Assembly (NCBI RefSeq): GCF_000019605.1
Contig: NC_010482.1
Span: 720,001-752,000, forward strand
Direction: 5' to 3'
From: Candidatus Korarchaeum cryptofilum OPF8
Lineage (GTDB): Archaea; Korarchaeota; Korarchaeia; Korarchaeales; Korarchaeaceae
DNA: 32,000 nt
Shown: one piece after another, positions 1-14,393 of the stretch
How positions within the stretch are numbered: the stretch's first letter is position 1
How the letters are laid out: the number at the start of each line of letters is the position of its first letter
Translations under genes and position numbers: made by a program
The notes under the pieces: model-generated
Told to the model about the DNA's origin: nothing
What the model saw: only the letters and a program-made list of their open reading frames with translations
Databases searched by the model: none

Positions 1-3000
1 CCCCCTCCATTGAGAAGCGTATATTCCCCCCGAACTCAGCATCGATATTCACTTTAGCCTTCATGCCCAGCTTGCTCACATTTTCTATCGCTATTTTCAG
101 CGAAATTAGATCGGAACTACTTATTGATAGGAGCTTCTCTCCAGAGATGCTGCTATCTATCTTATCTACGTCTCTCTCCTCCTCAGGGCTCAAGATGACT
201 ATGGAGACGGATTCCTCCTTGAGCAGCCCGTCCGAGCTCACTGCCCTTATCTTCAGGGGAAACCTCCCCACCCTCCTGGGCGTTACCTCCCATGAGACCT
301 TCATCGGAGGCCTGCCTTTCCCCTGACTGAGCTCCCCTTCCTCTACCTGGAGCTTTATCTCCTCCGAATAATCTTCTACGGGTTCTATGGATATCTCGAA
401 TACTGCCTTCTCTCCCTGGTTCAATTCCACATGCTTCGGTTTCACATCGAGAACGAAGCCTCTCTTCAGCTCCTCCTCCCTCTTCTCTATCACCCCGGCC
501 CTCAAGACCTCTTCCCATCCTTCCTGCTTCACCAAGTCCTCGAGAGGTATTCTCTCCCCTCCAATCTCTACTTCGTACCAGATCCTCTTCGTTACTCCGT
601 TCTTCCGCACACCGCTTTTGGAGAGGAGCTCCTCCTTCATCTGCTCCGCAGCCCTCTTCCAGGGGAGTATCACTGCTGTATCCCTCAATCCCTTCGGCCT
701 CTCAGCGCCTGAGGATCCGATTCTCTTCCAGTAGAGTCCCCCCTCTATCTTAATCCCTATATCCAGTTTATCCAGGCCCTCGAGGAGGGCTTCCTCAACC
801 GCTTTTTGCGTAGTGAAGGGAGCCGCTGTATTCGTGTAGAATACATCCATGATTTCCTTGAACTCGAACTGCCTGTCTCCATTCACTAAATCCCATCCGA
901 GATTGTCCTTAAGAAAATCGGAGATATCCTTGAATTCCAGTTTTGTCCTGAGCTTCGGTCCAGTTCTCGGGTCTTTGAGCGCCGCTTCCACCTGCGATAT
1001 GAGGTAGGAGGAAGGGCTCGCTTCCACGATCTTTATATCGTTCCCCTCCTTCCCCTTGTATGGGTAAGCGACCTTCGTTAGGAGGGAGAGTATCTGCTGC
1101 ATCAAGTATCCTTTGTTTTCATTAATGTAACTCTCCAACTTATTACTCTGGATCTTTATTATGTCCTTATCCGTGTAGTACTCGCTCAGGTTTTCCTTTA
1201 TTTCTTCAGCTGCTTCTATCTTCGCTACATATCTGAGCTCATCCTCTAAGTTCGATTTCGATGGGAATACTACTGCTATCGTATTTGCATATGTTCTCTT
1301 TCCTCCTCCGGGTTCTCTCAGTATTATATTCCTCAGCTCCTCCTCACTAACATCCGGTTTTACCATTACGACTAACCTCAACGATTTCTCGTCCCTCAGT
1401 TCTCTCCCTATGTCATCTCCATATCCCAGTGTAATCACGTTATTACTGTCAAATACCTCGCCTGATGGCTTCTCTCCCTTCTTGCGGGTTCCGGATGTGT
1501 CTCCTTTAACATGACTTTTTACATAATTGACCAGCTTCCTGTGGAGGTCGAGGATCGCGCCTCTCAGCATCTCATCAGCTCTCCTCTCTACGTACTCCAA
1601 GACCGATGGATAGGGCGTGAACCAGAACCTGTTCTCCTCCCCGGTGAAGTGGGGGAGTTTGACCAGCATCTCCTCTACCGTGGCCTCTATATCTGGTGGC
1701 TGAAGATCGCTTGATGAAAAGCTCTCGGGATCGTAGGTCATCAAAGCTATGTCCTTCAGATCTGGGAATACTTTTAGAGGCTCTTTGAATGTTTCATAGG
1801 TGTAGGTCTTCAATAATACGACTGTAGCTATCTTGAGGGCGAGCGCTGGCTTTGAGCAGTTCGCGATAGAGCCGAGGCTTCCATCCTCGGATACTATGTC
1901 CCTGCTCGCGACATCCCTGAAATTCTTGTAGCTCTCTGTGAGGACCAGGTTCCTTATATCCTTATCCCTCAGGTCTATGTGCCACGGCATTATGAACTCC
2001 GAATCCTCCCTCCCGCTGAGGATCCTCCTCACGACCTTTCTAGTTATCCTTATCGCATCCCTCGTCTTCTGAAGATCTCTGTTCCTCGTGACGAATTCTC
2101 TGAGTACTTCCAAATACTTTGGGTGGAAAGGATAAGTATCCTTAGCCGTGATCCTCTTCTCCTCGAGTGATAGCTGCCAGTCGGATTCCGTCCCGAATAT
2201 CTCGTATCCCCTGTAGGTAGATTGGAGCCCATCTTGAGCTTTCCATGCTGCATCCTCAGATATGTATGAGAATATCCTCCTCTTGAGGACCATCACAATG
2301 TCCTCAGGGGCTACAGGAACTACTATTTTGGTGGTCTCCCTGCGTATGTGCCTCAGTATCTTTTCCGCTACGTCCCTGTAAAGCTCCTCGTAGCGGGGCT
2401 CCCCCTTCCTATACTCCGCTTGGATGGAGATCACGAGGGCTATCCTTTCGAGGGGTTCTATGGCTTTAGCCAGATTTTCCAGGAAAAGTATGACTTTCTC
2501 CCCATAATCCTTGAGATCCTCGGATCTCGTCATATTGAAAACGTAGGGGACTATCTCATCAAGCAGTATTATCGTGGGATCCTTCGCTCCAGACAAGATG
2601 GACCTGAGCTTCTCGATATCGGGAGCCGGAGATCCCTTGCTATCAAGGTGCTCTATATCAGCGTATCTGCCTAGCTTATAAGCTAACATACCCCATATCG
2701 TCCTTATTTTGAATCCCTCAGCTTCATAAGGCTCAGCTGGGTGAGGGACTAATTTCGTGCTGCTCGCGTCCATCACCACGACCTTTACCCTTCCTAGCCT
2801 CGATATCCTAGCGGCGAGTTTCTCATCGAGATCCCTCAGACTCTCCGGGCTCTCGAAGGCATGGTAGAGCGTTATCAGCGTATGGGTCTTCCCTCCTCCG
2901 AAGAGTGATGTCAGGAGGAATATATTGCTTCCCTTTTTCCCCTCTAGAGAATCTGCTATCTCCTCTATAAGCTCCCTCATCGATTTCGTGAGGTAAGTGT

Positions 3001-3154
3001 GCTTGAAGAACTCCTTGGGGTCTGTGTAGAGGGGGACCTCCCTCCGGAAGTAGACATCGCATAAGTTAGGAGCAGCTTTATCGTCCAAGCTCGTATCGTA
3101 GACATCATCCCAGACCTTCACATCTCCCCTCTGCAAATATTCCTTCAGCCCCAT
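1..3154 (-). CDS. DUF499/COG1483-like P-loop ATPase; C-terminus lies beyond the left window edge
   Basis: Absent from the ORF track because it is open at the window edge. Manual minus-strand translation from ATG 3154 (MGLKEYLQRGDVKVWDD...) stays open to position 1 (~1051 codons; frame verified at both ends). Walker A TSLFGGGKTHT (~2884-2910) and Walker B-like TIILLDEIVPY (~2547-2576). The start lies 4 nt after the stop of the upstream methylase gene. Confidence 0.85.
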   Translation of the reverse strand, partial: MGLKEYLQRGDVKVWDDVYDTSLDDKAAPNLCDVYFRREVPLYTDPKEFFKHTYLTKSMRELIEEIADSLEGKKGSNIFLLTSLFGGGKTHTLITLYHAFESPESLRDLDEKLAARISRLGRVKVVVMDASSTKLVPHPAEPYEAEGFKIRTIWGMLAYKLGRYADIEHLDSKGSPAPDIEKLRSILSGAKDPTIILLDEIVPYVFNMTRSEDLKDYGEKVILFLENLAKAIEPLERIALVISIQAEYRKGEPRYEELYRDVAEKILRHIRRETTKIVVPVAPEDIVMVLKRRIFSYISEDAAWKAQDGLQSTYRGYEIFGTESDWQLSLEEKRITAKDTYPFHPKYLEVLREFVTRNRDLQKTRDAIRITRKVVRRILSGREDSEFIMPWHIDLRDKDIRNLVLTESYKNFRDVASRDIVSEDGSLGSIANCSKPALALKIATVVLLKTYTYETFKEPLKVFPDLKDIALMTYDPESFSSSDLQPPDIEATVEEMLVKLPHFTGEENRFWFTPYPSVLEYVERRADEMLRGAILDLHRKLVNYVKSHVKGDTSGTRKKGEKPSGEVFDSNNVITLGYGDDIGRELRDEKSLRLVVMVKPDVSEEELRNIILREPGGGKRTYANTIAVVFPSKSNLEDELRYVAKIEAAEEIKENLSEYYTDKDIIKIQSNKLESYINENKGYLMQQILSLLTKVAYPYKGKEGNDIKIVEASPSSYLISQVEAALKDPRTGPKLRTKLEFKDISDFLKDNLGWDLVNGDRQFEFKEIMDVFYTNTAAPFTTQKAVEEALLEGLDKLDIGIKIEGGLYWKRIGSSGAERPKGLRDTAVILPWKRAAEQMKEELLSKSGVRKNGVTKRIWYEVEIGGERIPLEDLVKQEGWEEVLRAGVIEKREEELKRGFVLDVKPKHVELNQGEKAVFEISIEPVEDYSEEIKLQVEEGELSQGKGRPPMKVSWEVTPRRVGRFPLKIRAVSSDGLLKEESVSIVILSPEEERDVDKIDSSISGEKLLSISSSDLISLKIAIENVSKLGMKAKVNIDAEFGGNIRFSMEG

Positions 3155-3158
3155 GAGA

Positions 3159-6077
3159 TCACCCCAAATCGAGCGGAACTGCCCTAGGCACTGGTTCTAA
3201 GCATCCGACGATCCTCTCGCACAGTACCCTCTCCTTATCGTCCTTAGATAGGACCTTAGCCATCATCTTAGCCATTAAAATTGCCTCCTCGACTTGAGAG
3301 GGGTACTTCGATCTCAGTTCATCGAGCTTCTTCTTGAATTCCCCGCAGGCGAGCGAGACGGAATAATACTCGAGGACGTGCAAGGCATCTATCGAGCACC
3401 TTATCTCGGGTTCCCTCACACCCACCCCTCTGACCTCTAGAAGTTCCTCTAATTTAGCTTTTTCCGTAGATGTGGGCTCCATTAAGATGAGGCTCTGCGC
3501 TCTCGCTACTTTAGCCCCTTCGCTCTCCCCTCCTTTCAATATCCTCAGTTTCTTCGCCCTTCCCAGATCTAGGGAGGTCCCTATTGAGAATATCCTGGCA
3601 TCTGTGCTCTCTATCACTTTCTCCTTCATCCCGCTGAGGGCAAATTTTACGATAAGGTAGAACATAGCCTCAGGGCTTTTTATAGTCTCTTTAAGATCCG
3701 CTTTATATGCTAGGGCTCTCGCGAGGCCCAGGAGGGAGGCAGGGTATATGTAGCTGTCGACTAGCGTCCTGACGTCAACTCTCCCCATAGACCTGACCTC
3801 CTTGTACTTAGTGGCCACTGAAAGAGCTTCCGCTAGAGTCCCTATTATGAGATCCCTCCCGCTTATGCCCAGATCTATTAGCTCCCTAGCTTTCCTCGCT
3901 GAGGCATCTGCCATCTCCTCGTAGAGATCTGATGCATCTACTGATGCCTCGGATCCCTTCCTCCACACCACAATAATGCTAGTGTCCATGGATAGCTTCC
4001 CCCTTTTGACAACGCTCTGCTCAGATTCCGTGACCAACGGGAACGCGTTCGTGATCCTCAACCCCGAGTTCTCCCAACCGGTCTCTAGGAGGGCCTTCCA
4101 TGCATCGGGACTAGTGTGAGCATAGAAAGTCACTAAAATTCCGTCTTCCTTGAGCCTAGAGGCCATGTTATTGAAGGAGAGATTCAGGAGGTTCTGAAAG
4201 TGTTTTATGCCTTCCTCCTTCTTCGCATTCGGGCCAAGCCTAGGCGGGTTGAGGCTCACCTCACTCAAAGCATATTTTTCCCATTGGGTAGGTATCTCTA
4301 TATAGCTTTCACCGACTTTCTCGAAGAAAGCCTCCGGTATGAATCTCGGAGCGAGTTTGTTATCGATAACATCGCTCAAAGCTCTCTTCAACCAGACGTA
4401 GTAGAAATCGCTGAGCTCTGTATAGGGAACATCATCATAGTAGGGTGGATCTGTAACTATAAGATCGAACTTCTCCTCTGAATTAAGCTTATTGAGGATT
4501 GTAGCATCATCTAGTAATACTTTTATTTCGTTATTTTCGGTTAATCCCTCGTCTAATGGACTATGAGGTGTGTTATGAATGCCAAAAATAAGGTAAGAAA
4601 GGCCATTAGTACACTGTTTTATTACCCTCATCCAGCTACCAGTAAATTCAGCCGAGGGGACAGTATCTACCCAATTCCACATCATTGCTATACCGCGCAT
4701 AGCAAGTCCATGACTAATTTTTGGTATATTGCAATCCCACAGATTACATAAGAAGTTATAATCAGCATATTTACATAGCGCTATTGCCAGATATGCTGTC
4801 ACTGCTTCCGCATACTCAAACGCATCCTGCTTACTCCAACCCTCTTTAAGTTTATCCTCCTCTATCCTCTTTCCGGCCTCTCTTATCAGCTTAACGAGCT
4901 TGACTAATGTCAGAAGCTGGCGGGGGTTAAAGAGCTTATACCATTCAGTCATACCATAAAGTATTGGGAAAAGGTACCTCACACTATATGGAGAGATAAA
5001 ATCTCTTGGTACGTCTGGATCATTTGCCTCTAGGAGCTTTTTCACCTCTTCCCTCGCTTTCTCAAGTTTTTCTTGATCTTTTTCAGTACATGGCTCGAAT
5101 TCCAGGTCTCCCTGTTTAACTTTGACTTTAACGAGCAGCCTCTGCCTTGCTAAGCTATCATCCCCCTCATTACACCTCGAGAGCGCGTACTTCACGTACC
5201 ACTTCAGCTTTTCACCCTTCCCGGGCTTGATAACATGCCTCCCATCCTCAGCATCATAATACTTTATGGGTTGATTGCAGAGGAGGCATACAGCCTGCTC
5301 CCTTCTCGCCTCTATATTGCTCTCTGGAACTCTGAACTCCTCGGAATCTATTATCACTCTGTTCTTCACAATTTTAGCTCTCTCAACGGCTCTGTCTCCA
5401 AACATTTTATTCAGATCCACTACCTCTATGCCAACTCTATCCCCATTTACCACGGGCTTCATCCAAGCGATCCTCTCATACCCCTTATCTCCTTTAACCC
5501 TCGCTAGCCACCAGTTTCCCACTAGCGGAGTCCACCTCCCGCAGTTAGGGCACTTCACCTCCCACGATCCGATGTAGGCAGCTACGTCCTCATCGTAAAG
5601 CTCCTTCACCTCCTCCTTGAGCCTCTCAACAACCCACTCCCCCCACTTTTTCACGTCATCTGAGAGCTTCTTCCCATATTTAGGGTACTCCAAGATAGCC
5701 TTCAGGAACACGTAAGCTGTTGGAAGAAGCTCTACAGCTGTTGCTGAGATCCCAAGCCTAAGTGCTTCTAAGGGTATCGAGCCGAACCCTGCGAATGGAT
5801 CCAAGAGCTTTACTCCATCGAATTTGTATGAAGGGGGATTTCTATGAGCCATTCCTTTCCCCCTTATCCCTATCGAACGGAGGAAACTCTCTCTATCAGT
5901 GTTTTCAGGCAGGAGGCATCCGGCTATCACAGCTCTCGCTGCTATTAACGGCTTCCTAGTCCACCAGAAGACCATCTCCCAATGAGGAGGCCTTCCAGGT
6001 CCCTTCTCTGCAGCGGATGCTCTACTCACCTCCTTGACTGGGAACCTCGGCGACTCTATGAACTTCCTTTCGCTCAC
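3159..6077 (-). CDS. DUF1156/COG1743-like N6-adenine DNA methyltransferase with Zn-ribbon insertion
   Basis: 972-aa ORF with a GTG start. The N-terminus FPVKEVS...GRPPHWEMVFWWTRKP is typical of DUF1156. SAM motif LLDPFAGFGSIPLEA; Cys clusters CPNCGRW and CLLCNQP; catalytic DPPY in LIVTDPPYYDDVPY (4440-4451). Confidence 0.88.
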   Translation of the reverse strand: MSERKFIESPRFPVKEVSRASAAEKGPGRPPHWEMVFWWTRKPLIAARAVIAGCLLPENTDRESFLRSIGIRGKGMAHRNPPSYKFDGVKLLDPFAGFGSIPLEALRLGISATAVELLPTAYVFLKAILEYPKYGKKLSDDVKKWGEWVVERLKEEVKELYDEDVAAYIGSWEVKCPNCGRWTPLVGNWWLARVKGDKGYERIAWMKPVVNGDRVGIEVVDLNKMFGDRAVERAKIVKNRVIIDSEEFRVPESNIEARREQAVCLLCNQPIKYYDAEDGRHVIKPGKGEKLKWYVKYALSRCNEGDDSLARQRLLVKVKVKQGDLEFEPCTEKDQEKLEKAREEVKKLLEANDPDVPRDFISPYSVRYLFPILYGMTEWYKLFNPRQLLTLVKLVKLIREAGKRIEEDKLKEGWSKQDAFEYAEAVTAYLAIALCKYADYNFLCNLWDCNIPKISHGLAMRGIAMMWNWVDTVPSAEFTGSWMRVIKQCTNGLSYLIFGIHNTPHSPLDEGLTENNEIKVLLDDATILNKLNSEEKFDLIVTDPPYYDDVPYTELSDFYYVWLKRALSDVIDNKLAPRFIPEAFFEKVGESYIEIPTQWEKYALSEVSLNPPRLGPNAKKEEGIKHFQNLLNLSFNNMASRLKEDGILVTFYAHTSPDAWKALLETGWENSGLRITNAFPLVTESEQSVVKRGKLSMDTSIIVVWRKGSEASVDASDLYEEMADASARKARELIDLGISGRDLIIGTLAEALSVATKYKEVRSMGRVDVRTLVDSYIYPASLLGLARALAYKADLKETIKSPEAMFYLIVKFALSGMKEKVIESTDARIFSIGTSLDLGRAKKLRILKGGESEGAKVARAQSLILMEPTSTEKAKLEELLEVRGVGVREPEIRCSIDALHVLEYYSVSLACGEFKKKLDELRSKYPSQVEEAILMAKMMAKVLSKDDKERVLCERIVGCLEPVPRAVPLDLG

Positions 6078-8383: not shown

Positions 8384-9136
8384 ATGGAATTGAGGGAGGA
8401 CGAGTCCTTATTCAGCCCCTCCGATACCTCCGCTACTTCGCGGAGAGGAGGGGAGTCTCTATAGACTCCTTGAGGATCCCGGATGCTATTGACATATGAT
8501 AGAGGCTTATTTGAATGTGCTAAGGGCCTCATCAGGGGCGAACCCATAGAATGGATGTATGGAGAAGCCATCCTGCACCGGCCGATTCAACGGTGTAGAA
8601 ATATGAGCTGGCCTTTTCCCGATCGGAGCACCTGCCGCAGCAGCCACACTCGAGGAAGCAATTGCATGCGGAGCTAAGATGATCATCGAGGTCGGCTTGG
8701 CCGGAGGCCTGCAGGGATTCCTGAAACCGGCTGATATAATAGTCGTGACGGAGGCAGTACGCGACGAGGGGACCTCCTATCATTACCTCCCGCCCGGAGT
8801 GAAAGTGGAGTCCTCCCAGAGATTGAGAGAGACTTTGATTGAGTGTTTGAATGGATGAGGCACTTCGTCGGCCCAGTTTGGTCCACTGACGGCGTTTACA
8901 GGGAGACCTTGGGCAAGTTCCGCAGGTTCAGGGATAGCGGCGTCTTGGCTGTGAATATGGAGACATCCGCAATTTTCGCTGTCGCGAAATATAGAGGCGT
9001 TGAAGCAGCTTCAGCTCAAGTGATTTCAGATATACTGACGGAGAGGGGATGGTTCCCAGCCTTTCACGAGAGATCTGTTAGGGAAAGTGCGGAAGTCCTG
9101 CTGAAGGCTGCCCTAGAGGTCCTTTCAAAGAGTTGA
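8384..9136 (+). pseudogene. Nucleoside phosphorylase (PNP_UDP_1, Udp-like), multiply disrupted
   Basis: Collinear fragments lie in different frames: MELREDESLFSPSD / LRYFAERRGVSIDSLRIPDAIDI / YDRGLFECAKGLIRGEPIEWMYGEAILHR / RFNGVEI-TGA(8604-8606)-AGLFPIGAPAAAATLEEAIACGAKMIIEVGLAGG...DIIVVTEAVRDEGTSYHY / track ORF 8843-9136 (GPVWSTDGVYRET...LAVNMETSAIFAVA). TATA-like tatttaaatttt lies ~25 nt upstream of 8384. Confidence 0.75.
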
Positions 9137-9318
9137 AAAGCTTTGCTTTCGTTAACTTCCGGGAGATAGAAATTCCACAGATTCAAGGTGAAGTGTGAAT
9201 AACCGGAGAGGGAGTTCGGCTCAAGGTCGAACTTATCGTTCTAAAAATGGGAAATCTGGCAGGTAAGCATTCTGATGGGAGACTTTCCCTGCTCACTAGT
9301 CAAGGTACTCGGACACAC

Positions 9319-10314
9319 TTATTCCTCGATTTTTGGACCATAGACTAGGCCGTGTTCCAAATGGTACACTGTTATAGGAGACTCTCTTCCTATTACAACT
9401 TTCATTGGCATAATTAGTTCATCGATAACCTTGAAAAACTTACGAGCGGTCTTGTAAAGATCGGAGGCCAATTTCTTTTCCTCATCTGACAGCTCTTCTA
9501 CGCACAATCCCAGCTTTTTCGCCTCATCCAGGTGAATTACTTTGCCATGATAGCTGTACTCGCTTACAAGCGTATTTGCAACACTATCTGCATTGGGAGA
9601 CTGTTGCATAGCACTGCCTTCTGACTTAATGGAGCTCCGTTTGAACATTTTGTTAGAAAGAAGCTCTATCAATAGCTTTCTCGCATGATTAATCAGTGAA
9701 TCATAATGCCCGAGCTCTGTTATGGGGATTCCGCTGAGAACTGCCTCAGTGAACGGTTTAATTACCGAGTTTACTGCTTCACTCATTCCAGGAGCTCTTC
9801 TAACAACATCTATAAGCTCCTTTATAACCTTTTCACGAAATATTTCCAGAGTCTGCCCAAAGGAATCCCGTACAACTTTCGCCGAGACCCAAGTCCTTGC
9901 ACTCTCCACGTACACCTGAGGATCCACAGGACCCAGCTCTGAAATTCGTGTCATGATTATCTTATCACCTGAGCATGCGAGGAGTGTGCCAGCAGACTTG
10001 GCCATCCTAGGAACTATGAAGGATAGTTCTCTCTCCCCCGCGAGCTTTTGCAACAGGATCCCTATATGATAAGCTGCATCTGCATCCCCTCCTAGAGTGT
10101 GAAGGACTACATCGATCCCTTCTTTGCTCGAGAGATCGTGCTCCTCAAGGAAAAACTCTAGATCGATGACATCTCTTGTGATGAATGCATCATCATGGAA
10201 GATCATTAGAATGATGTGTCTTCCTCTCTTATTCTCAAGCTCAGAGGAAATATTATCGAGCTCAGATAGATAGTCAAAAGGTCCCCTCGAAGTAATTTCA
10301 CTCATTCTATACAC
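9319..10314 (-). CDS. SDH-family (PF01972-like) ClpP/crotonase-fold serine protease
   Basis: VLHTLGGDADAAYHIG...IVPRMAKSAGTLLACSGDKIIMTRISELGPVDPQ matches the SDH/SppA-type Ser protease core. The likely start is ATG 10305, 1 nt after the upstream gene's TAG. Confidence 0.7.
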   Translation of the reverse strand: MYRMSEITSRGPFDYLSELDNISSELENKRGRHIILMIFHDDAFITRDVIDLEFFLEEHDLSSKEGIDVVLHTLGGDADAAYHIGILLQKLAGERELSFIVPRMAKSAGTLLACSGDKIIMTRISELGPVDPQVYVESARTWVSAKVVRDSFGQTLEIFREKVIKELIDVVRRAPGMSEAVNSVIKPFTEAVLSGIPITELGHYDSLINHARKLLIELLSNKMFKRSSIKSEGSAMQQSPNADSVANTLVSEYSYHGKVIHLDEAKKLGLCVEELSDEEKKLASDLYKTARKFFKVIDELIMPMKVVIGRESPITVYHLEHGLVYGPKIEE

Positions 10315-10801
10315 CTTTCAGCCTGTACATCCTTCTCCAGCCCTCAACCTTCTCCCTTATCGCGCTGTTCGATGCGAAGGAGGGGAACTTCATGTAGACA
10401 TAAGTGAGCAGGTAGGTGATCGGTGCACTGTTATAAGATCTGACTTTTCTGCGCATCTCGGCTGCCAGAATTCTGTTTTTTGCCGAGATTTCCTCGAATA
10501 TCTTTTTACCCCGCTCCATAAGGGCAGCGGATGCCGTTATTATCTTGGCCGGGTTCTCCTGCATGAAGCTGTAAATAGGGTCGCTGAACTCCTCTATTTT
10601 GATGAGCCCCTCCCTCTCCAGCTCATCTATGGAATCAGCTAGCTCACTCGACCAAGGTCCGTATTTGGAGGCTGAAAAATTATATCCGTTCAGGCCGAAC
10701 TCCTCCTGCAGAAGGAAGACTATCTTGTTCAATCTAGTGACTCCTCTTATCCTGCCATCGCACAGATAAAATACGAGAGCCAGCAGATCCACGTTCATCA
10801 A
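10307..10801 (-). CDS. wHTH protein resembling the Panacea/DUF4065 (SocA-like) antitoxin domain
   Basis: TRLNKIVFLLQEEFGLNGYNFSASKYGPWSSELADSIDELEREGLI fits the KLxKLxYLxQ...GPxS...L...G pattern. It is translationally coupled to the protease gene. Assigned by eye only. Confidence 0.45.
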   Translation of the reverse strand: MMNVDLLALVFYLCDGRIRGVTRLNKIVFLLQEEFGLNGYNFSASKYGPWSSELADSIDELEREGLIKIEEFSDPIYSFMQENPAKIITASAALMERGKKIFEEISAKNRILAAEMRRKVRSYNSAPITYLLTYVYMKFPSFASNSAIREKVEGWRRMYRLKGV

Positions 10802-10916
10802 GAACTATGGAGACCTCTGAAATTTAAATTTTGATGTGAGCTTGAGCAAACTTTCAGAGAACTCTCCTCAGAAAAGCTCAAAAATAATTTTATATGACTT
10901 AGCTTGATATAGTATT

Positions 10917-11657
10917 ATGCTATCCCTCAGCATCGGATTTAATCCTGATTTATGGACTTTGGAATCGGTCTGCAGAAGGACCATAGAAAACAAAAGAGGG
11001 AAGATAGATATCTACATATTCTACTTTGCCGTCCAGTTTCTCCCATTTCATGTATGGGATTACGAGCCTGTCATCGTATATGAAAGCGGGAATGAGGTAA
11101 CCTGCCTTTATGATGCTCTCCACTACTACATAGGATGCTCGAAAAAGCCGGAGCTCGTGATAAGCTATCCATAGAGGTCTTTTTATGAAGGATCTACTGA
11201 AAAGAAGGTTGAGCTGGATAAAATGCCGCAAAGAGAGCTTACGGATGAACTCATAAAGGTCTGGAGATCCAGAGATCACAACCCTTTCTCTATGGATGAG
11301 ATCTTCCTAGAGGATCCTTGGAAAGCATTGGATGAATTCAGGAAGGGAGAAAGGGTGAAATTTGGGGAAGAGCGAGAGAGAAAGATAGTATCACTTGAGC
11401 TTCCTGAATACAGAGATGTCGAGACTCTATACAACGATCTATCCCTTGCATTGGAGACAAATGAGATTATAAAGGGATTCAAATGGCCTGGAATTCTGGC
11501 GGAGTATGTCCTGTCATCAAGCATAGAAAAGGAGAGCCTTCAGTCCTTCCTAGCGAGAAAATGCATTGCTGAACGTATAGTGCTAGAAATGGAGAATCTG
11601 ACAAGAATAGAGGGGGAACTGAGATCAGTTTACAGCAAAACAGGAGAAGAATCCTAA
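10917..11657 (+). pseudogene. Hypothetical ~246-aa protein interrupted by one in-frame TAG (11172-11174)
   Basis: Track ORFs 10917-11174 and 11223-11657 share a frame and are separated only by TAG plus 16 sense codons. I recognised no family. Confidence 0.5.
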
Positions 11658-11834
11658 AAGCTGTAAATTATCCACAACACAGGCAAATCCCGGAAATCTG
11701 CACAGTATCTTTGTATCTAGAAGAAATTCTTGACTAGAAAAGTAAATTGAGTGCGAAAAAGATTTTTATACATTAAATTCTAGCTCATGATATGTGCATG
11801 CTATCTCACCTTAGTGACAGGGGAGGAGGATGAT

Positions 11835-11957
11835 ATGAAATATCAAGATATAGTAGAACTTAAGAAACGCATGGACTTTAACAGAACAGAATCAGAAGTT
11901 TTAGTTAAACTGGTGGAAGGTGCTCTCTACTATATAGGATGCTCGAAAAATTGTTGA
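11835..11957 (+). CDS. Small ORF (40 aa), possibly RHH-like
   Basis: MKYQDIVELKKRMDFNRTESEVLVKLVEGALYYIGCSKNC, preceded by GGGAGGAGGATGAT. Its 3' end is a near-copy of 11114-11146. Too short for the ORF track. Confidence 0.25.
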   Translation: MKYQDIVELKKRMDFNRTESEVLVKLVEGALYYIGCSKNC

Positions 11958-12025
11958 ATATGCGCACAATCTGGAGAGGAAACTTTATATAGAAAGTCCT
12001 GCAAGAATTAGAAGGGGGAGTAGAA

Positions 12026-12196
12026 ATGAGTAGAGGGAAGCAAAAGGAGCAATTATTTGAAATTAGAGTCTCCCCGGGAATTTTCGATTGGTGCAGCCCA
12101 GAGGAATTCGAGGAAGCGCTTAAGCTATACTTAGTTGATCGCCGGAATAAAACGACAGAAGAGGTTAAAAAAGAAGAAAGAAAAGCGAGATGCTAA
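12026..12196 (+). CDS. Small ORF (56 aa), Lys/Glu-rich C-terminus
   Basis: MSRGKQKEQLFEIRVSPGIFDWCSPEEFEEALKLYLVDRRNKTTEEVKKEERKARC, preceded by GAAGGGGGAG. It sits in a very AT-rich spacer. Confidence 0.25.
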   Translation: MSRGKQKEQLFEIRVSPGIFDWCSPEEFEEALKLYLVDRRNKTTEEVKKEERKARC

Positions 12197-12405
12197 AAAT
12201 AATCCTTTTCCTCTCTTTTTAATTTCCCTTTAGAAAAAGGCAAAATTAACATAACAATATCAAATACTGATGAGTTAGATATAATTTAGGAAAATAGTAT
12301 TAAAATGAAAGATACCATCAAAAGGAATTACTAGCTTAAAATATGAAATGATCTAACACCACATTTCTATAGGCTTAAGGGGGATTTCACTCCCTCTTTT
12401 TTATT

Positions 12406-13896
12406 CTAATCACTAGAAGATTTAACAATGTCATCAACTAATAAATCTCTAACTCTTCTAATGTCTTCTTCTTTTATATCCTTCTTTTGAATGTTTGGAA
12501 TTAAAAAAGATATGCGAAAGATTTCAGTTCTTCTAGCTTCCTCGTTCAGAACCCTAACATAAGAGGAAGTTGCTAATAAATCTTTCGGTTTACTTCCTTT
12601 CTTTCCTATTAGAATTCGCTCCTCCTCTTTTACGGCATAGGGTGAAAAAGGTATAGTAGAGAGTAACAAGATCGCGCCCGGGCGCGGATACATCGGTTTA
12701 CGCATTCCGCTTTTAAGTTCTTCGAGCCATCTTCTGAATTTATCAGCAATTTCCTCATCAGAAGGTTCTATGGATGATTTTCTCTTAATTTCTTCAATAA
12801 AATCATCGAAGTCCGTCTCCCTCTTAATTAAGGCAACCGGTATATACCGACGGTCGAAAAATGCCTTAAATTCTGGATGAGTTTCCTGATGCTTTCTTAA
12901 TTTAAAACGAATGAAAGTATCATCAACTTCGCCTTTTAGGAAGTTTTCAGGGCGGAAATCTTCATATTTTAGTTCGCCTTCTTCAACCATTGATTCTATT
13001 GCCATTTTTAGAAGTTCTTCCAGAGCACATACTAAATGATGGCCATATAGGGATTTATGCATCTTAATACGGGCATCTAAGATATCTTCGACCGCTCTTA
13101 AAGCCCGTTCATGTACGATTAACTGGTATTTTTCACTATATTTTTCTATAAATATATTGATAATTATTCTATTAATATCAGTCAAGCCGAATGGCAATCC
13201 TGTTGCATGCGAATCTCTTAAGAGATAGTCCATGCGGTCGGCATCCAATTGGCTTGAAATGATCTTTCTGAGAATTTCAGTACTATCTTCTGCTCTCTTT
13301 TTAATCAGAAGATTTGCCACATCTTCTACATTGATTTTATAGGATTCAATAGTTTTTCTAATTATACTATCTTTTTCGGTTATCATTTTATAACTAAAAT
13401 ATTCATGAACCGGTATATCCCTCTCACTCCTGCAGTTAAATAGATCTTTTGCCTCCTCTATCTCTTCATTTTTTAAAACTTTTCGTAAAATAGGTTCTGA
13501 AACATGTGAATAAGGACCATGACCAACGTCGTGAAGTAGGGCCGCTAACCTTACTGTTTGAATTATTCTATAACAATTTTCTGTAAATTTCTCAGAATTT
13601 GGATTTAGATTAAAAGCCTCCTTAAGCCCATCTAGTGATGCAGATCCCAAGATTTGATAGATCATTTTATTTGCCAGGTGCAAAACTCCGAGAGAATGTT
13701 CAAACCTACTTGTTTTTGCAGCTGGGTAAACCAAATAGGTAAGTCCCAAGTGATGAATATCGTGTAATCGGTTTAAAGGAGGTAATTGGAGAAGGTTGTA
13801 TTCAAGCTCAGTTAATTGAATAGGTCCATGAACGGAATCCATAATAGTTTTTGAGTATTCAAATCTTGGTAGAAATACGATCCCTTTTTTCGTCAT
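12406..13896 (-). CDS. HD-domain dNTP triphosphohydrolase-like protein (COG1078 / SAMHD1-type)
   Basis: Carries RFEHSLGVLHLA, LAALLHDVGHGPYSH and QLDADRMDYLLRDS, the H...HD...D metal-site signature of this family. ATG 13896 is preferred over the track's TTG 13908 (GGAAGGGGA lies upstream). Composition is AT-rich. Confidence 0.8.
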   Translation of the reverse strand: MTKKGIVFLPRFEYSKTIMDSVHGPIQLTELEYNLLQLPPLNRLHDIHHLGLTYLVYPAAKTSRFEHSLGVLHLANKMIYQILGSASLDGLKEAFNLNPNSEKFTENCYRIIQTVRLAALLHDVGHGPYSHVSEPILRKVLKNEEIEEAKDLFNCRSERDIPVHEYFSYKMITEKDSIIRKTIESYKINVEDVANLLIKKRAEDSTEILRKIISSQLDADRMDYLLRDSHATGLPFGLTDINRIIINIFIEKYSEKYQLIVHERALRAVEDILDARIKMHKSLYGHHLVCALEELLKMAIESMVEEGELKYEDFRPENFLKGEVDDTFIRFKLRKHQETHPEFKAFFDRRYIPVALIKRETDFDDFIEEIKRKSSIEPSDEEIADKFRRWLEELKSGMRKPMYPRPGAILLLSTIPFSPYAVKEEERILIGKKGSKPKDLLATSSYVRVLNEEARRTEIFRISFLIPNIQKKDIKEEDIRRVRDLLVDDIVKSSSD

Positions 13897-14393
13897 TCCC
13901 CTTCCCAAATGAGCTCGCTACAAGGCTATTTAATCTTTTCGTTCCTTCTCCCTTTCATGAATTTCGTGAACTTATCAGCCCTTTCTTCCTCTATACGATT
14001 CCTCTTTTCTTAACTTAAAAATGGTCTTTAGGGACAACCCGAAGCATCTTTTTCTCTAACAACCTTTATTTTAATTCCTTCATAGTTAGGAACTTCCCTA
14101 ATCACCTCTAATTCCACTTATTCCGTTTTCTATATGGCTCAGAGATGGCAAAAGAAGAAGCTAGAGGAGGTGAAGTTCAAACTTAAGAGGAATCAATCTA
14201 AAAGTTCGATATAGAAGATCTGGGCCTTGTTCACATATCTCATGTGCCGCACGTGCATGCCTTCTTCAGTGAAAATAAGAATGAGGAAAGCATAACAGCT
14301 TAGTGAAAGAGCACTAGAATAAGAGCCTTCAGAGGAACACTCCAGAGCCGAGATAAACCAAAGAGGATCAATACAGAACCGTTAAGCTTATAA

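Follow-up and report, generated by a model that had tools for sequence, protein, structure and literature searches.

A 32,000-nucleotide stretch of the genome of Candidatus Korarchaeum cryptofilum OPF8 (assembly GCF_000019605.1, contig NC_010482.1, forward-strand positions 720,001 to 752,000; hereafter the window) contains two adjoining genes that encode a small Panacea-like protein and, immediately downstream, a ClpP-fold serine protease of the SDH family. The two genes, which probably form a co-transcribed, translationally coupled module, recur together in several lineages of thermophilic archaea, and in relatives of the window organism the small gene is also found with other partners or alone. 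We put at about one in two the probability that the pair is a module of the PanA-PanT kind, in which a PanA-like neutraliser or sensor restrains a protease effector. The genes and their junction lie as follows, in positions of the window:

10307..10801, minus strand: small-protein gene, TTG start, 164 amino acids (aa), stop codon TAG at 10307-10309
9319..10314, minus strand: gene for the SDH-type protease, GTG start, 331 aa
10303..10320, minus strand: gene junction, with GGTG (Shine-Dalgarno-like), the TAG of the small gene, 1 nucleotide (nt) and the ATG of the protease

Both open reading frames (ORFs) were found on the minus strand where a preliminary description of the stretch had placed them, and the motifs it quoted are present: RLNKIVFLLQ, SKYGPWS and LEREGLI in the small protein, and LHTLGGD, AKSAGT and ELGPVDPQ in the protease. 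For each gene an internal start appears likely. That of the small gene is the ATG at 10798, which is the start of homologues P0002 and P0003 and gives a protein of 163 aa (loci and proteins of our sampling are cited by L and P numbers). The ATG at 10305 is favored over the GTG at 10314 as the likely protease start because the closest homologues are 329 aa long and begin MSE...; translation from this codon yields 328 aa. At the junction the mRNA reads ...AAA GGT GTA TAG A ATG AGT..., with GGTG 8-11 nt before the ATG, a layout consistent with translational coupling of the two genes. The proximity of stop and start remarked on earlier is thus borne out, the TAG lying 1 nt before ATG 10305, and the junction is tight in all 24 non-identical pairs that we compared. 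Homologue E-values extend down to 3e-101 for the small protein and 4e-204 for the protease, far from chance. Both genes are under purifying selection (dN/dS 0.10-0.26; 0.10-0.22 for the small gene), and the pair is intact while both flanking genes are damaged. It had also been described as richer in AT than its flanks, which is true of the left flank (GC 0.50-0.52, compared with about 0.45 for the pair) but not of the right, which is more AT-rich (GC 0.35-0.43).

Sampling from the protease side placed the small gene directly upstream in 11/11 homologues at 35% identity or more. It is immediately upstream and on the same strand at all five genome loci with a protease of at least 39% identity (L006-L010; hosts Methanodesulfokora, Sulfolobales, two Desulfurococcaceae, and one unclassified archaeon), and upstream of all six further proteases (P0029, P0036, P0028, P0063, P0074 from Bathyarchaeia, and P0078; 36-47% identity), where the genes overlap by 4-32 nt or are separated by a 2-nt gap. 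Called genes in L002-L005 and L204-L213 likewise overlap by 4-32 nt or leave a gap of 2-4 nt. In all, the pair was found in Korarchaeota, Sulfolobales, Desulfurococcales, Ignisphaera, and Bathyarchaeia. The best match among genomes is Candidatus Methanodesulfokora washburnensis (Korarchaeota; NZ_RCOS01000143, L006), with a protease 85% identical and 3.3 kb collinear at 85%, and a hot-spring metagenome contig (L086) is 97% identical to the window over 3 kb. SDH-type proteases as a whole are far more widespread, with at least 520 loci confirmed in a genome scan and at least 132 IMG/VR contigs; among these we examined the neighbors at 75 distant cellular and 80 viral-contig loci, and found a Panacea-like gene beside the protease at 0/75 (even at E <= 1) and 0/80, respectively. 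Conservation of the pairing, for which the preliminary description had recommended an analysis of gene neighborhoods, is therefore strong within one archaeal clade.

Starting from the small gene gave a similar picture, with the protease present at 23/29 evaluable metagenome loci and also in the Ignisphaera and L002 contigs. Throughout the 24 non-identical pairs, which span 35-97% protease identity, the protease frame opens before or at the small-gene stop, and the identity matrices of the two proteins are correlated (r = 0.96). The flanks of the pair vary from locus to locus and include BREX PglX, BrxL and NOV_C genes, VapBC, restriction-modification genes, an SNF2 helicase, an ABC ATPase, and a PLD protein with a helicase. 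Since the flanking genes differ from place to place, the pair appears to move as a unit. In a metagenome-assembled genome of Bathyarchaeia (L212, 1-3407) it is immediately preceded by BREX-type genes that encode a PglX-like methyltransferase, BrxL, and a NOV_C protein; its upstream neighbors in L204 encode an SNF2/NOV_C helicase and a protein with a metallo-beta-lactamase fold. No third conserved gene, such as a substrate or an AAA+ unfoldase, was seen beside the pair in any context examined.

A second line of evidence comes from relatives of the window organism, in which we compared locus variants between the nucleoside phosphorylase gene and the small gene. Four arrangements follow the small gene:

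window, L086, L006: SDH protease
L090: protein of 333 aa that has a transmembrane helix at its N terminus and whose gene shares 17 nt with the small gene
L001: 245-aa membrane protein and a GmrSD nuclease
L088, L089: nothing

The variable cassette is bounded in the window by two breakpoints, defined against the protease-less loci L001, L088, L089, and L090:

10312..10329: upstream breakpoint, where similarity ends at the 3' end of the small gene (blastn and 3'-end protein alignment)
9138..9230: downstream breakpoint, where similarity resumes at the end of the nucleoside phosphorylase gene (blastn)

Small proteins from the protease, membrane-protein, and orphan variants are 91-96% identical, and dS between the locus variants is only 0.13-0.18 (dN/dS about 0.1). 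Most of the differences between the proteins lie at the C-terminal end, which is "...KLKGV", a 36-40-aa tail, or "...RRRILNVQVP"; these variable tails may carry partner specificity. A second case is provided by L002, which has the protease, and L094, which lacks it, with small proteins 95% identical. Orphan small genes are intact in L088, L089, and L094 (dN/dS 0.10-0.13), and degraded pairs occur in L099 and L109; no orphan protease of this archaeal clade was seen in the sample. That the small gene can stand alone, but the protease of this clade was not once seen to do so, is the asymmetry expected of an antitoxin and its toxin. Partner swapping is a hallmark of Panacea antitoxins (PMC8832971; PMC10440598), and the promiscuity that had been attributed to such domains can be seen directly here, in L001, L090, and the orphans.

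The small protein itself is predicted to consist of an N-terminal winged helix followed by a C-terminal helical bundle (AlphaFold2 model, pLDDT 92). The proposal that it belongs to the Panacea/DUF4065 proteins holds at the level of the superfamily, although a direct match to PF13274 is lacking. A profile of its family retrieved, among 5.8 billion sequences, the PF13274 protein P0147 (E = 1.5e-8), which itself passes the Pfam cut-off (27.3 bits versus 25.7, model positions 1-108 of 113), and hhalign aligned the family with P0147 over residues 2-149 at 98% probability (E = 1.8e-13). The same profile collects 1984 proteins at E <= 1e-3 among 1.84 billion representatives; in a sample of 113 relatives, 39 match PF13274 SocA_Panacea, 29 PadR, and 14 HxlR. 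Among PADLOC models the best match is PDC-M19A (6e-11), followed by a type I Specificity C-terminal region (1.8e-8) and the DarG C-terminal region (3.6e-6), and the NCBIfam DarG model is matched at positions 189-320 only (5.5e-6). Structural comparison points the same way: the top two Foldseek hits in the PDB are the DarG chains of 7yk3, a complex with DarT (E = 5e-4 and 1.2e-3, TM 0.53-0.54), after which the list consists of PadR, LmrR, and MarR repressors. A search of PDB sequences with the family profile gave chance-level matches only. Homologues are labeled "YwgA" by JGI and, for that of Ignisphaera, "DUF4065 domain-containing" by UniRef. We therefore read the small protein as Panacea-like at the superfamily level, a divergent branch below the Pfam threshold, judging by these profile and fold comparisons.

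DUF4065 proteins are homologous to the C-terminal domain of DarG, which binds and inhibits DarT (PMC13621843). Stand-alone Panacea neutralises toxins by direct contact, and Panacea has been proposed to be a sensor, not a transcription factor (PMC10440598). PanAs with several domains owe their neutralising activity to exchangeable elements attached at either terminus (PMC10440598), which is the analogy for a specificity role of the variable tails noted above. In the small protein of the window, the helix at the recognition position of the winged helix-turn-helix (SELADSIDELER) has a net charge of -4 and the whole winged-helix half is acidic, which speaks against reading of DNA in the canonical way. 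The C-terminal half, on the other hand, is basic. The overall isoelectric point (pI) is 9.1, and that of the protease is 5.5.

Two groups of relatives depart from this architecture or setting. In one subclade of the protease-linked small proteins (L113, L115-L118; P0125, P0128, P0129, P0134; 39% identical to that of the window), some 95-100 aa without a Pfam match are added at the N terminus; by eye, this extension may resemble small beta-rich domains of the DUF2283 type. Distant relatives at 31% identity (L121, 2903-3361; L123, 3971-4435) lie directly 3' of two genes, of about 420-430 and 345-350 aa; read as restriction-modification-like, these genes would fit the PADLOC Specificity C-terminal match.

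The protease passes the Pfam cut-off for PF01972 (SDH_protease) with its N-terminal core, residues 24-145 (5.6e-14, 52.3 bits versus a cut-off of 31.3). It reaches only 69.9 bits (2.2e-19) against the NCBIfam Clp_like_SDH model NF047768, for which the equivalog cut-off is 250, and is therefore a member of the SDH family but not an NF047768 equivalog. In its AlphaFold2 model (pLDDT 86), residues 33-144 form a ClpP-like core, residues 145-252 a long helical insert of about 100 residues, and the C-terminal part carries the predicted catalytic His. No record of the 331-aa ORF was found by exact look-up in the assembly index. Foldseek relates the model to SppA, 1510-N, and ClpP (E of about 1e-6 to 1e-5), and the family profile finds the NfeD protease 1510-N of Pyrococcus horikoshii among PDB sequences (1.7e-8). 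Ser107 is aligned with the Ser of the ASAASAGT motif of 1510-N, which we take to be its nucleophile, Ser97. Three codons specify the predicted catalytic residues:

9994..9996, minus strand: Ser107 (in AKSAGT), predicted nucleophile, invariant in 41 homologues
9922..9924, minus strand: Asp131 (in ELGPVDPQ), predicted triad Asp, present in at least 90% of the 41 homologues and assigned by position and residue order
9547..9549, minus strand: His256 (in YHGKVIH), predicted triad His, invariant in 41 homologues

The other invariant residues in this set are G75, G76, D79, K106, A108, G128, L249, and G257, and H72, D77, and P132 are, like D131, conserved in at least 90%. The order Ser-Asp-His along the chain is the one by which Pfam describes the SDH family. 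The position of the Lys that forms the Ser-Lys dyad of SppA and NfeD is not conserved in this family, and no transmembrane segment is predicted. With the family score above the cut-off and Ser107, Asp131, and His256 conserved, the earlier assignment to the SDH proteases stands, and from these residues and its ClpP-like fold the protease looks active. The nearest phage family is phrog_11747, whose annotation names no function and which is matched over nearly the full length (1e-43). A Pfam match of the C-terminal part to ABC-3C MC4 (E = 0.06) was set aside as noise. We found no relevant literature on PF01972, "serine dehydrogenase proteinase", SDH_sah, or YwgA, and no experimentally defined role or biochemical data for the SDH-type family.

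We suggest the following hypothesis for the pair. The small Panacea/DarG-C-type protein would bind the downstream SDH-type protease directly and keep it inactive. A cue, which might be a viral protein, the loss of the labile partner, or stress, would release or activate the protease, and the freed enzyme would then cleave host or viral proteins and so stop growth or virus production. Complex formation, inhibition and toxicity of the protease, the trigger, and a role in defense are all steps that we infer. As in PanAT-type modules, the pair is a bicistronic, co-directional unit with a short gap or overlap that occurs in varied contexts, and one antitoxin family exchanges unrelated protein partners. 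A bolder form of this hypothesis is tentative and to our minds somewhat doubtful: the Panacea-like gene would be a fixed "socket" in the genomes of thermophilic archaea, and interchangeable effectors, so far the SDH protease and two unrelated membrane proteins, would be recombined into it at a breakpoint within its last codons. The small protein would be a switch that senses virus or stress and, where its partner is the protease, frees a stand-alone ClpP-fold enzyme to kill or arrest the infected cell.

Several observations weigh against a PanA-PanT-like module. The small protein has no Pfam match to PF13274 at E <= 1, and 13 close homologues have none at E <= 10. No PADLOC model matches the protease, and we know of no documented toxin role for a ClpP-fold protease without an unfoldase. 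The small-protein family was not found on viral contigs, nor was a direct link to virus defense, and the region around the pair is only loosely "defense-like". Finally, the small protein is 96% identical whether it precedes the protease or an unrelated membrane protein. Association of the same small protein with unrelated partners is awkward for a highly specific interface and fits a generic regulator or sensor at least equally well.

Such a regulator is the leading alternative, although we regard it as unlikely: whatever gene lies downstream (the protease, a membrane protein, or none) would be controlled by the small protein acting as a winged-helix transcription factor of PadR type, and the protease would be regulated cargo and not a bound partner. 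BrxR- and CapW-type regulators, which precede many different defense systems, provide an analogy. The PadR and HxlR matches among the relatives (29/113 and 14/113) and the repressors that follow DarG in the Foldseek results speak for it, as do the intact orphans under purifying selection (dN/dS 0.10-0.13). So does the fact that the small gene and the intergenic DNA upstream of it stay almost the same when what follows is replaced or lost; in this intergenic region, short inverted repeats adjoin a TATA-like box:

10802..10916: intergenic region between the small gene and its divergent neighbor, common to all locus variants whatever lies downstream
10820-10831: TATA-like AAATTTAAATTT, about 22-33 nt before ATG 10798
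10842-10847 and 10876-10881: inverted repeats TTGAGC/GCTCAA

From the nucleotide sequence we infer that 10802-10916 may hold a promoter and operator. Its mean column identity of 78% is, however, not clearly above the neutral expectation from strain relatedness (dS 0.13-0.36). Other points also disfavor a mere regulator. The recognition-position helix and the winged-helix half of the small protein are acidic, and its best structural and sequence matches are to DarG-C, a protein-binding inhibitor domain. The NetFlax study argues that Panacea itself is not the DNA-binding part, since those PanAs that do autoregulate carry an extra helix-turn-helix (HTH) (PMC10440598). The persistence of overlapping or 1-nt-spaced genes across 35-97% protease identity, moreover, suggests stoichiometric co-production of the two proteins.

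The preliminary description pointed to SocA, a Panacea protein that is a proteolytic adaptor (PMC8832971), and one could suppose that the small protein likewise recruits a target to its own dedicated ClpP-fold protease, for targeted degradation in regulation or quality control and not as a toxin-antitoxin system. The partner is indeed a ClpP-fold protease, the pair co-evolves tightly (r = 0.96), and the charges of the two proteins are complementary (pI 9.1 and 5.5). Our results nevertheless do not support a SocA-style adaptor, which we consider distinctly improbable, for the pair is accompanied by no unfoldase and by no third conserved gene that could encode a substrate. Neutralisation in the PanATs tested so far needs no proteases (PMC8832971). 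An obligate adaptor would not be expected with non-protease partners or alone, as the small protein is found, and presence/absence polymorphism among near-identical strains argues against a core cellular role.

Still less convincing is a cleavable-partner switch of the ImmR/ImmA or RosmerTA type, in which the protease would be a sensor or antirepressor that, on a signal, cuts a small winged-helix partner normally engaged in repressing or sequestering something else. The coupled two-gene layout, with the helix-turn-helix protein first and the protease second, mirrors immR-immA, and protease-containing antitoxins exist (RmrA; PMC10440598). Pairings of a protease with a winged helix may even recur, in that small proteins with weak winged-helix signals are encoded after the SDH proteases of L011 and L012, but these signals are below threshold. 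ImmA and RmrA are M78 metallopeptidases and not ClpP-fold serine proteases, no integrase or excisionase genes flank the pair in the window or its relatives, and orphan and re-partnered small genes do not depend on the protease.

That the locus is a viral or proviral remnant, with a ClpP-related prohead maturation protease and a small viral regulator, is highly improbable. In its favor, the protease core weakly matches head-maturation protease models (NCBIfam, 6.2e-5; phrog_53, 2e-8), and at least 132 IMG/VR contigs encode SDH-type proteases at 25-30% identity. The matches to head-maturation models are, however, limited to the ClpP core (residues ~60-130), the full-length phage relative being phrog_11747, which is not a head protease. 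Of the viral-contig proteases, none is more than about 30% identical over the greater part of its length, and no member of the small-protein family was found on such contigs. The locus is syntenic with chromosomal DNA of Ca. Methanodesulfokora. The prohead-protease reading was rejected for want of a capsid-assembly cluster: neither in the window nor at 20 or more related loci does a capsid, portal, or terminase gene lie close to the pair.

The surroundings of the pair in the window had been called defense-type, which is only partly right: a DUF1156/type II methyltransferase is indeed encoded about 3 kb away, but the HD protein has only a weak dGTPase match and the immediate neighbors are damaged genes. 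The methyltransferase gene (3159-6077, minus strand) encodes 972 aa and matches PADLOC MTase_II at 5.9e-284, as well as HmaB and DUF1156_MTase; no obvious intact partner genes lie near it. Positions 1-3158, to its left, contain ORFs of at most 115 aa and may represent decayed genes; there was no Rfam match there or in a scan of the window as a whole.

On the downstream side of the pair, the nucleoside phosphorylase gene (PNP_UDP_1; 8384-9133, plus strand) has two frameshifts (frames 2, 3, 2). Both L006 and L001 have an intact copy, and that of the 97%-identical L086 is also frameshifted, differently at the 5' end; the gene of the window looks like a real pseudogene of the lineage and not a single assembly error. 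On the other side, the divergent 246-aa neighbor of the small gene (10917-11657, plus strand), which has no Pfam or PADLOC match, is interrupted by a stop at 11172-11174. A frameshift was rejected as the cause: compared with L001 and L006, the codon TGG of W86 has become TAG without a change of frame. The most AT-rich part of the window follows (11500-14000, GC 0.35), with a gene for a 500-aa HD + HD_assoc_2 protein (12406-13908, minus strand; weak PADLOC dGTPase match, 1.6e-5). In L089 and L090 the divergent neighbor of the small gene encodes a 224-aa HD protein. The ywgA gene of Bacillus subtilis presumably also adjoins an HD gene, ywfO, which would hint at a recurring HD-YwgA link. Between 16300 and 22800 there are only short overlapping ORFs of up to 136 aa on both strands, a pattern that, with the pseudogenes, points to extensive decay of genes in this part of the genome or else to indels introduced in assembly.

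SDH-type proteases elsewhere keep different company. At 24/75 of the distant loci (27-31% identity, mostly bacterial; e.g., L016, L020, L024-L026, L030, L041, L082), the protease belongs to a three-gene unit that consists, in order, of a fusion of ThiF (E1-like) and Prok-JAB, a DUF6527 protein of about 115 aa whose gene overlaps the protease start, and the SDH protease (examples at L016, 3897-5489, and L025, 5552-5890). The fusion protein matches many PADLOC E1-E2 models, and the unit may represent a conflict system, so far undescribed, that combines ubiquitin-like conjugation with a ClpP-fold protease. In L031, L038, L043, and L049 the gene for a DUF6941 protein lies downstream and overlaps the protease stop. 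At a few other loci, archaeal and bacterial, the protease stop is overlapped by a gene for a protein of 80-100 aa (L011, 6819-7088; L012, 6780-7046; L013, 942-1181; L014, 6827-7159; L019, 6876-7178), two of which, of Woesearchaeota type, have sub-threshold winged-helix matches only. The viral-contig loci (L124-L203, from IMG/VR) encode proteases that correspond to phrog_11747, and none has a Panacea-like, ThiF-JAB, DUF6527, or DUF6941 neighbor. The variety of small modules associated with SDH proteases is expected of an effector domain of conflict systems and so lends indirect support to the effector reading of the window protease.

The SDH-type ClpP-fold proteases constitute a large family, and the pair offers, for one of its clades, the concrete hypothesis of an effector held by a Panacea-type partner. 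If the pair is a PanA-PanT-like module, a protease would be added to the toxins that Panacea neutralises, and modules of PanAT type would reach hyperthermophilic Korarchaeota and Thermoproteota, in which few defense or toxin-antitoxin systems have been characterized. The strain-level swaps, with before and after states at 91-96% antitoxin identity, could then be used to study the tolerance of Panacea for new partners. Were the "socket" version true, the protease would rank as the first protease toxin with a ClpP fold and the module as a new abortive-infection system of archaea; in the bacterial ThiF-JAB/DUF6527/SDH trios, the same protease would have been adopted independently a second time as a conflict effector. 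If the small protein is only a regulator, the pair is of modest, local interest.

Among known systems, the best PADLOC match of the small protein is component A of PDC-M19, at positions 21-132 of a 294-residue model; because only the Panacea-like part matches and the protease matches no PADLOC model, the pair is not PDC-M19. For the protease core, the closest solved folds and sequences are those of the NfeD/1510-N-stomatin operon and SppA, with the nucleophile Ser aligned. These are ClpP-fold enzymes that cut specific substrates without an AAA+ partner. They are, however, membrane-anchored Ser-Lys dyad proteases with housekeeping roles, whereas in the enzyme described here the Lys is not conserved, Asp131 and His256 are, no transmembrane segment is predicted, and a helical insert of about 100 residues is present. 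RosmerTA and ImmR-ImmA share with our pair the combination of a helix-turn-helix-type protein and a protease in a two-gene module within variable or defense-rich regions, but their M78 zinc metallopeptidases act as antitoxin or antirepressor, whereas the enzyme here is a ClpP-fold serine protease, is second in the operon, and is predicted to be the effector. SocA-SocB, a type VI toxin-antitoxin system, also ties a Panacea-family protein functionally to a ClpP-fold protease. In that system the protease is the housekeeping ClpXP, encoded elsewhere, and the adjoining gene is the toxin SocB; here the adjoining gene is the protease, and neither a SocB-like toxin nor an AAA+ unfoldase was seen beside the pair in the contexts examined.

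The C-terminal domain of DarG from DarTG of Mycobacterium tuberculosis (PDB 7YK3) is the best match among solved structures (Foldseek E = 5e-4, TM 0.54), and the PADLOC and NCBIfam DarG models are matched in their C-terminal region only (positions 181-320). This domain binds and blocks DarT directly. The similarity is moderate (rmsd ~6 A), and the pair differs from DarTG in having neither a macrodomain nor DarT; as the partner is a protease, DNA mimicry cannot be assumed.

PanA-PanT systems (Kurata et al. 2022, PMC8832971; NetFlax, Ernits et al. 2023, PMC10440598) provide the model for our preferred reading. The preliminary description knew of no characterized Panacea plus SDH-protease system, which is consistent with the literature, the pairing being unreported in the available portions of these two studies. 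An SDH-type ClpP-fold serine protease is likewise absent from the PanT annotations and NetFlax nodes in those portions, and no SDH, ClpP, or protease toxin was found in the part of the Panacea survey's supplementary text at hand (PMC8832971). In the sections of that survey available to us, crenarchaeal PanA/DUF4065 homologues are marked "no_PanT" (PMC8832971), and the only proteases in the accessible part of the NetFlax report are ImmA-type metalloproteases, which serve as antitoxins (PMC10440598). The window pair also differs in that its small protein falls below the PF13274 threshold and in its hyperthermophilic archaeal hosts. Like PanA-PanT, it consists of a stand-alone Panacea-superfamily domain encoded upstream in a tight bicistronic operon, its distribution is patchy, and the Panacea gene is kept while the downstream partner, membrane proteins included, is exchanged or lost to leave an orphan.

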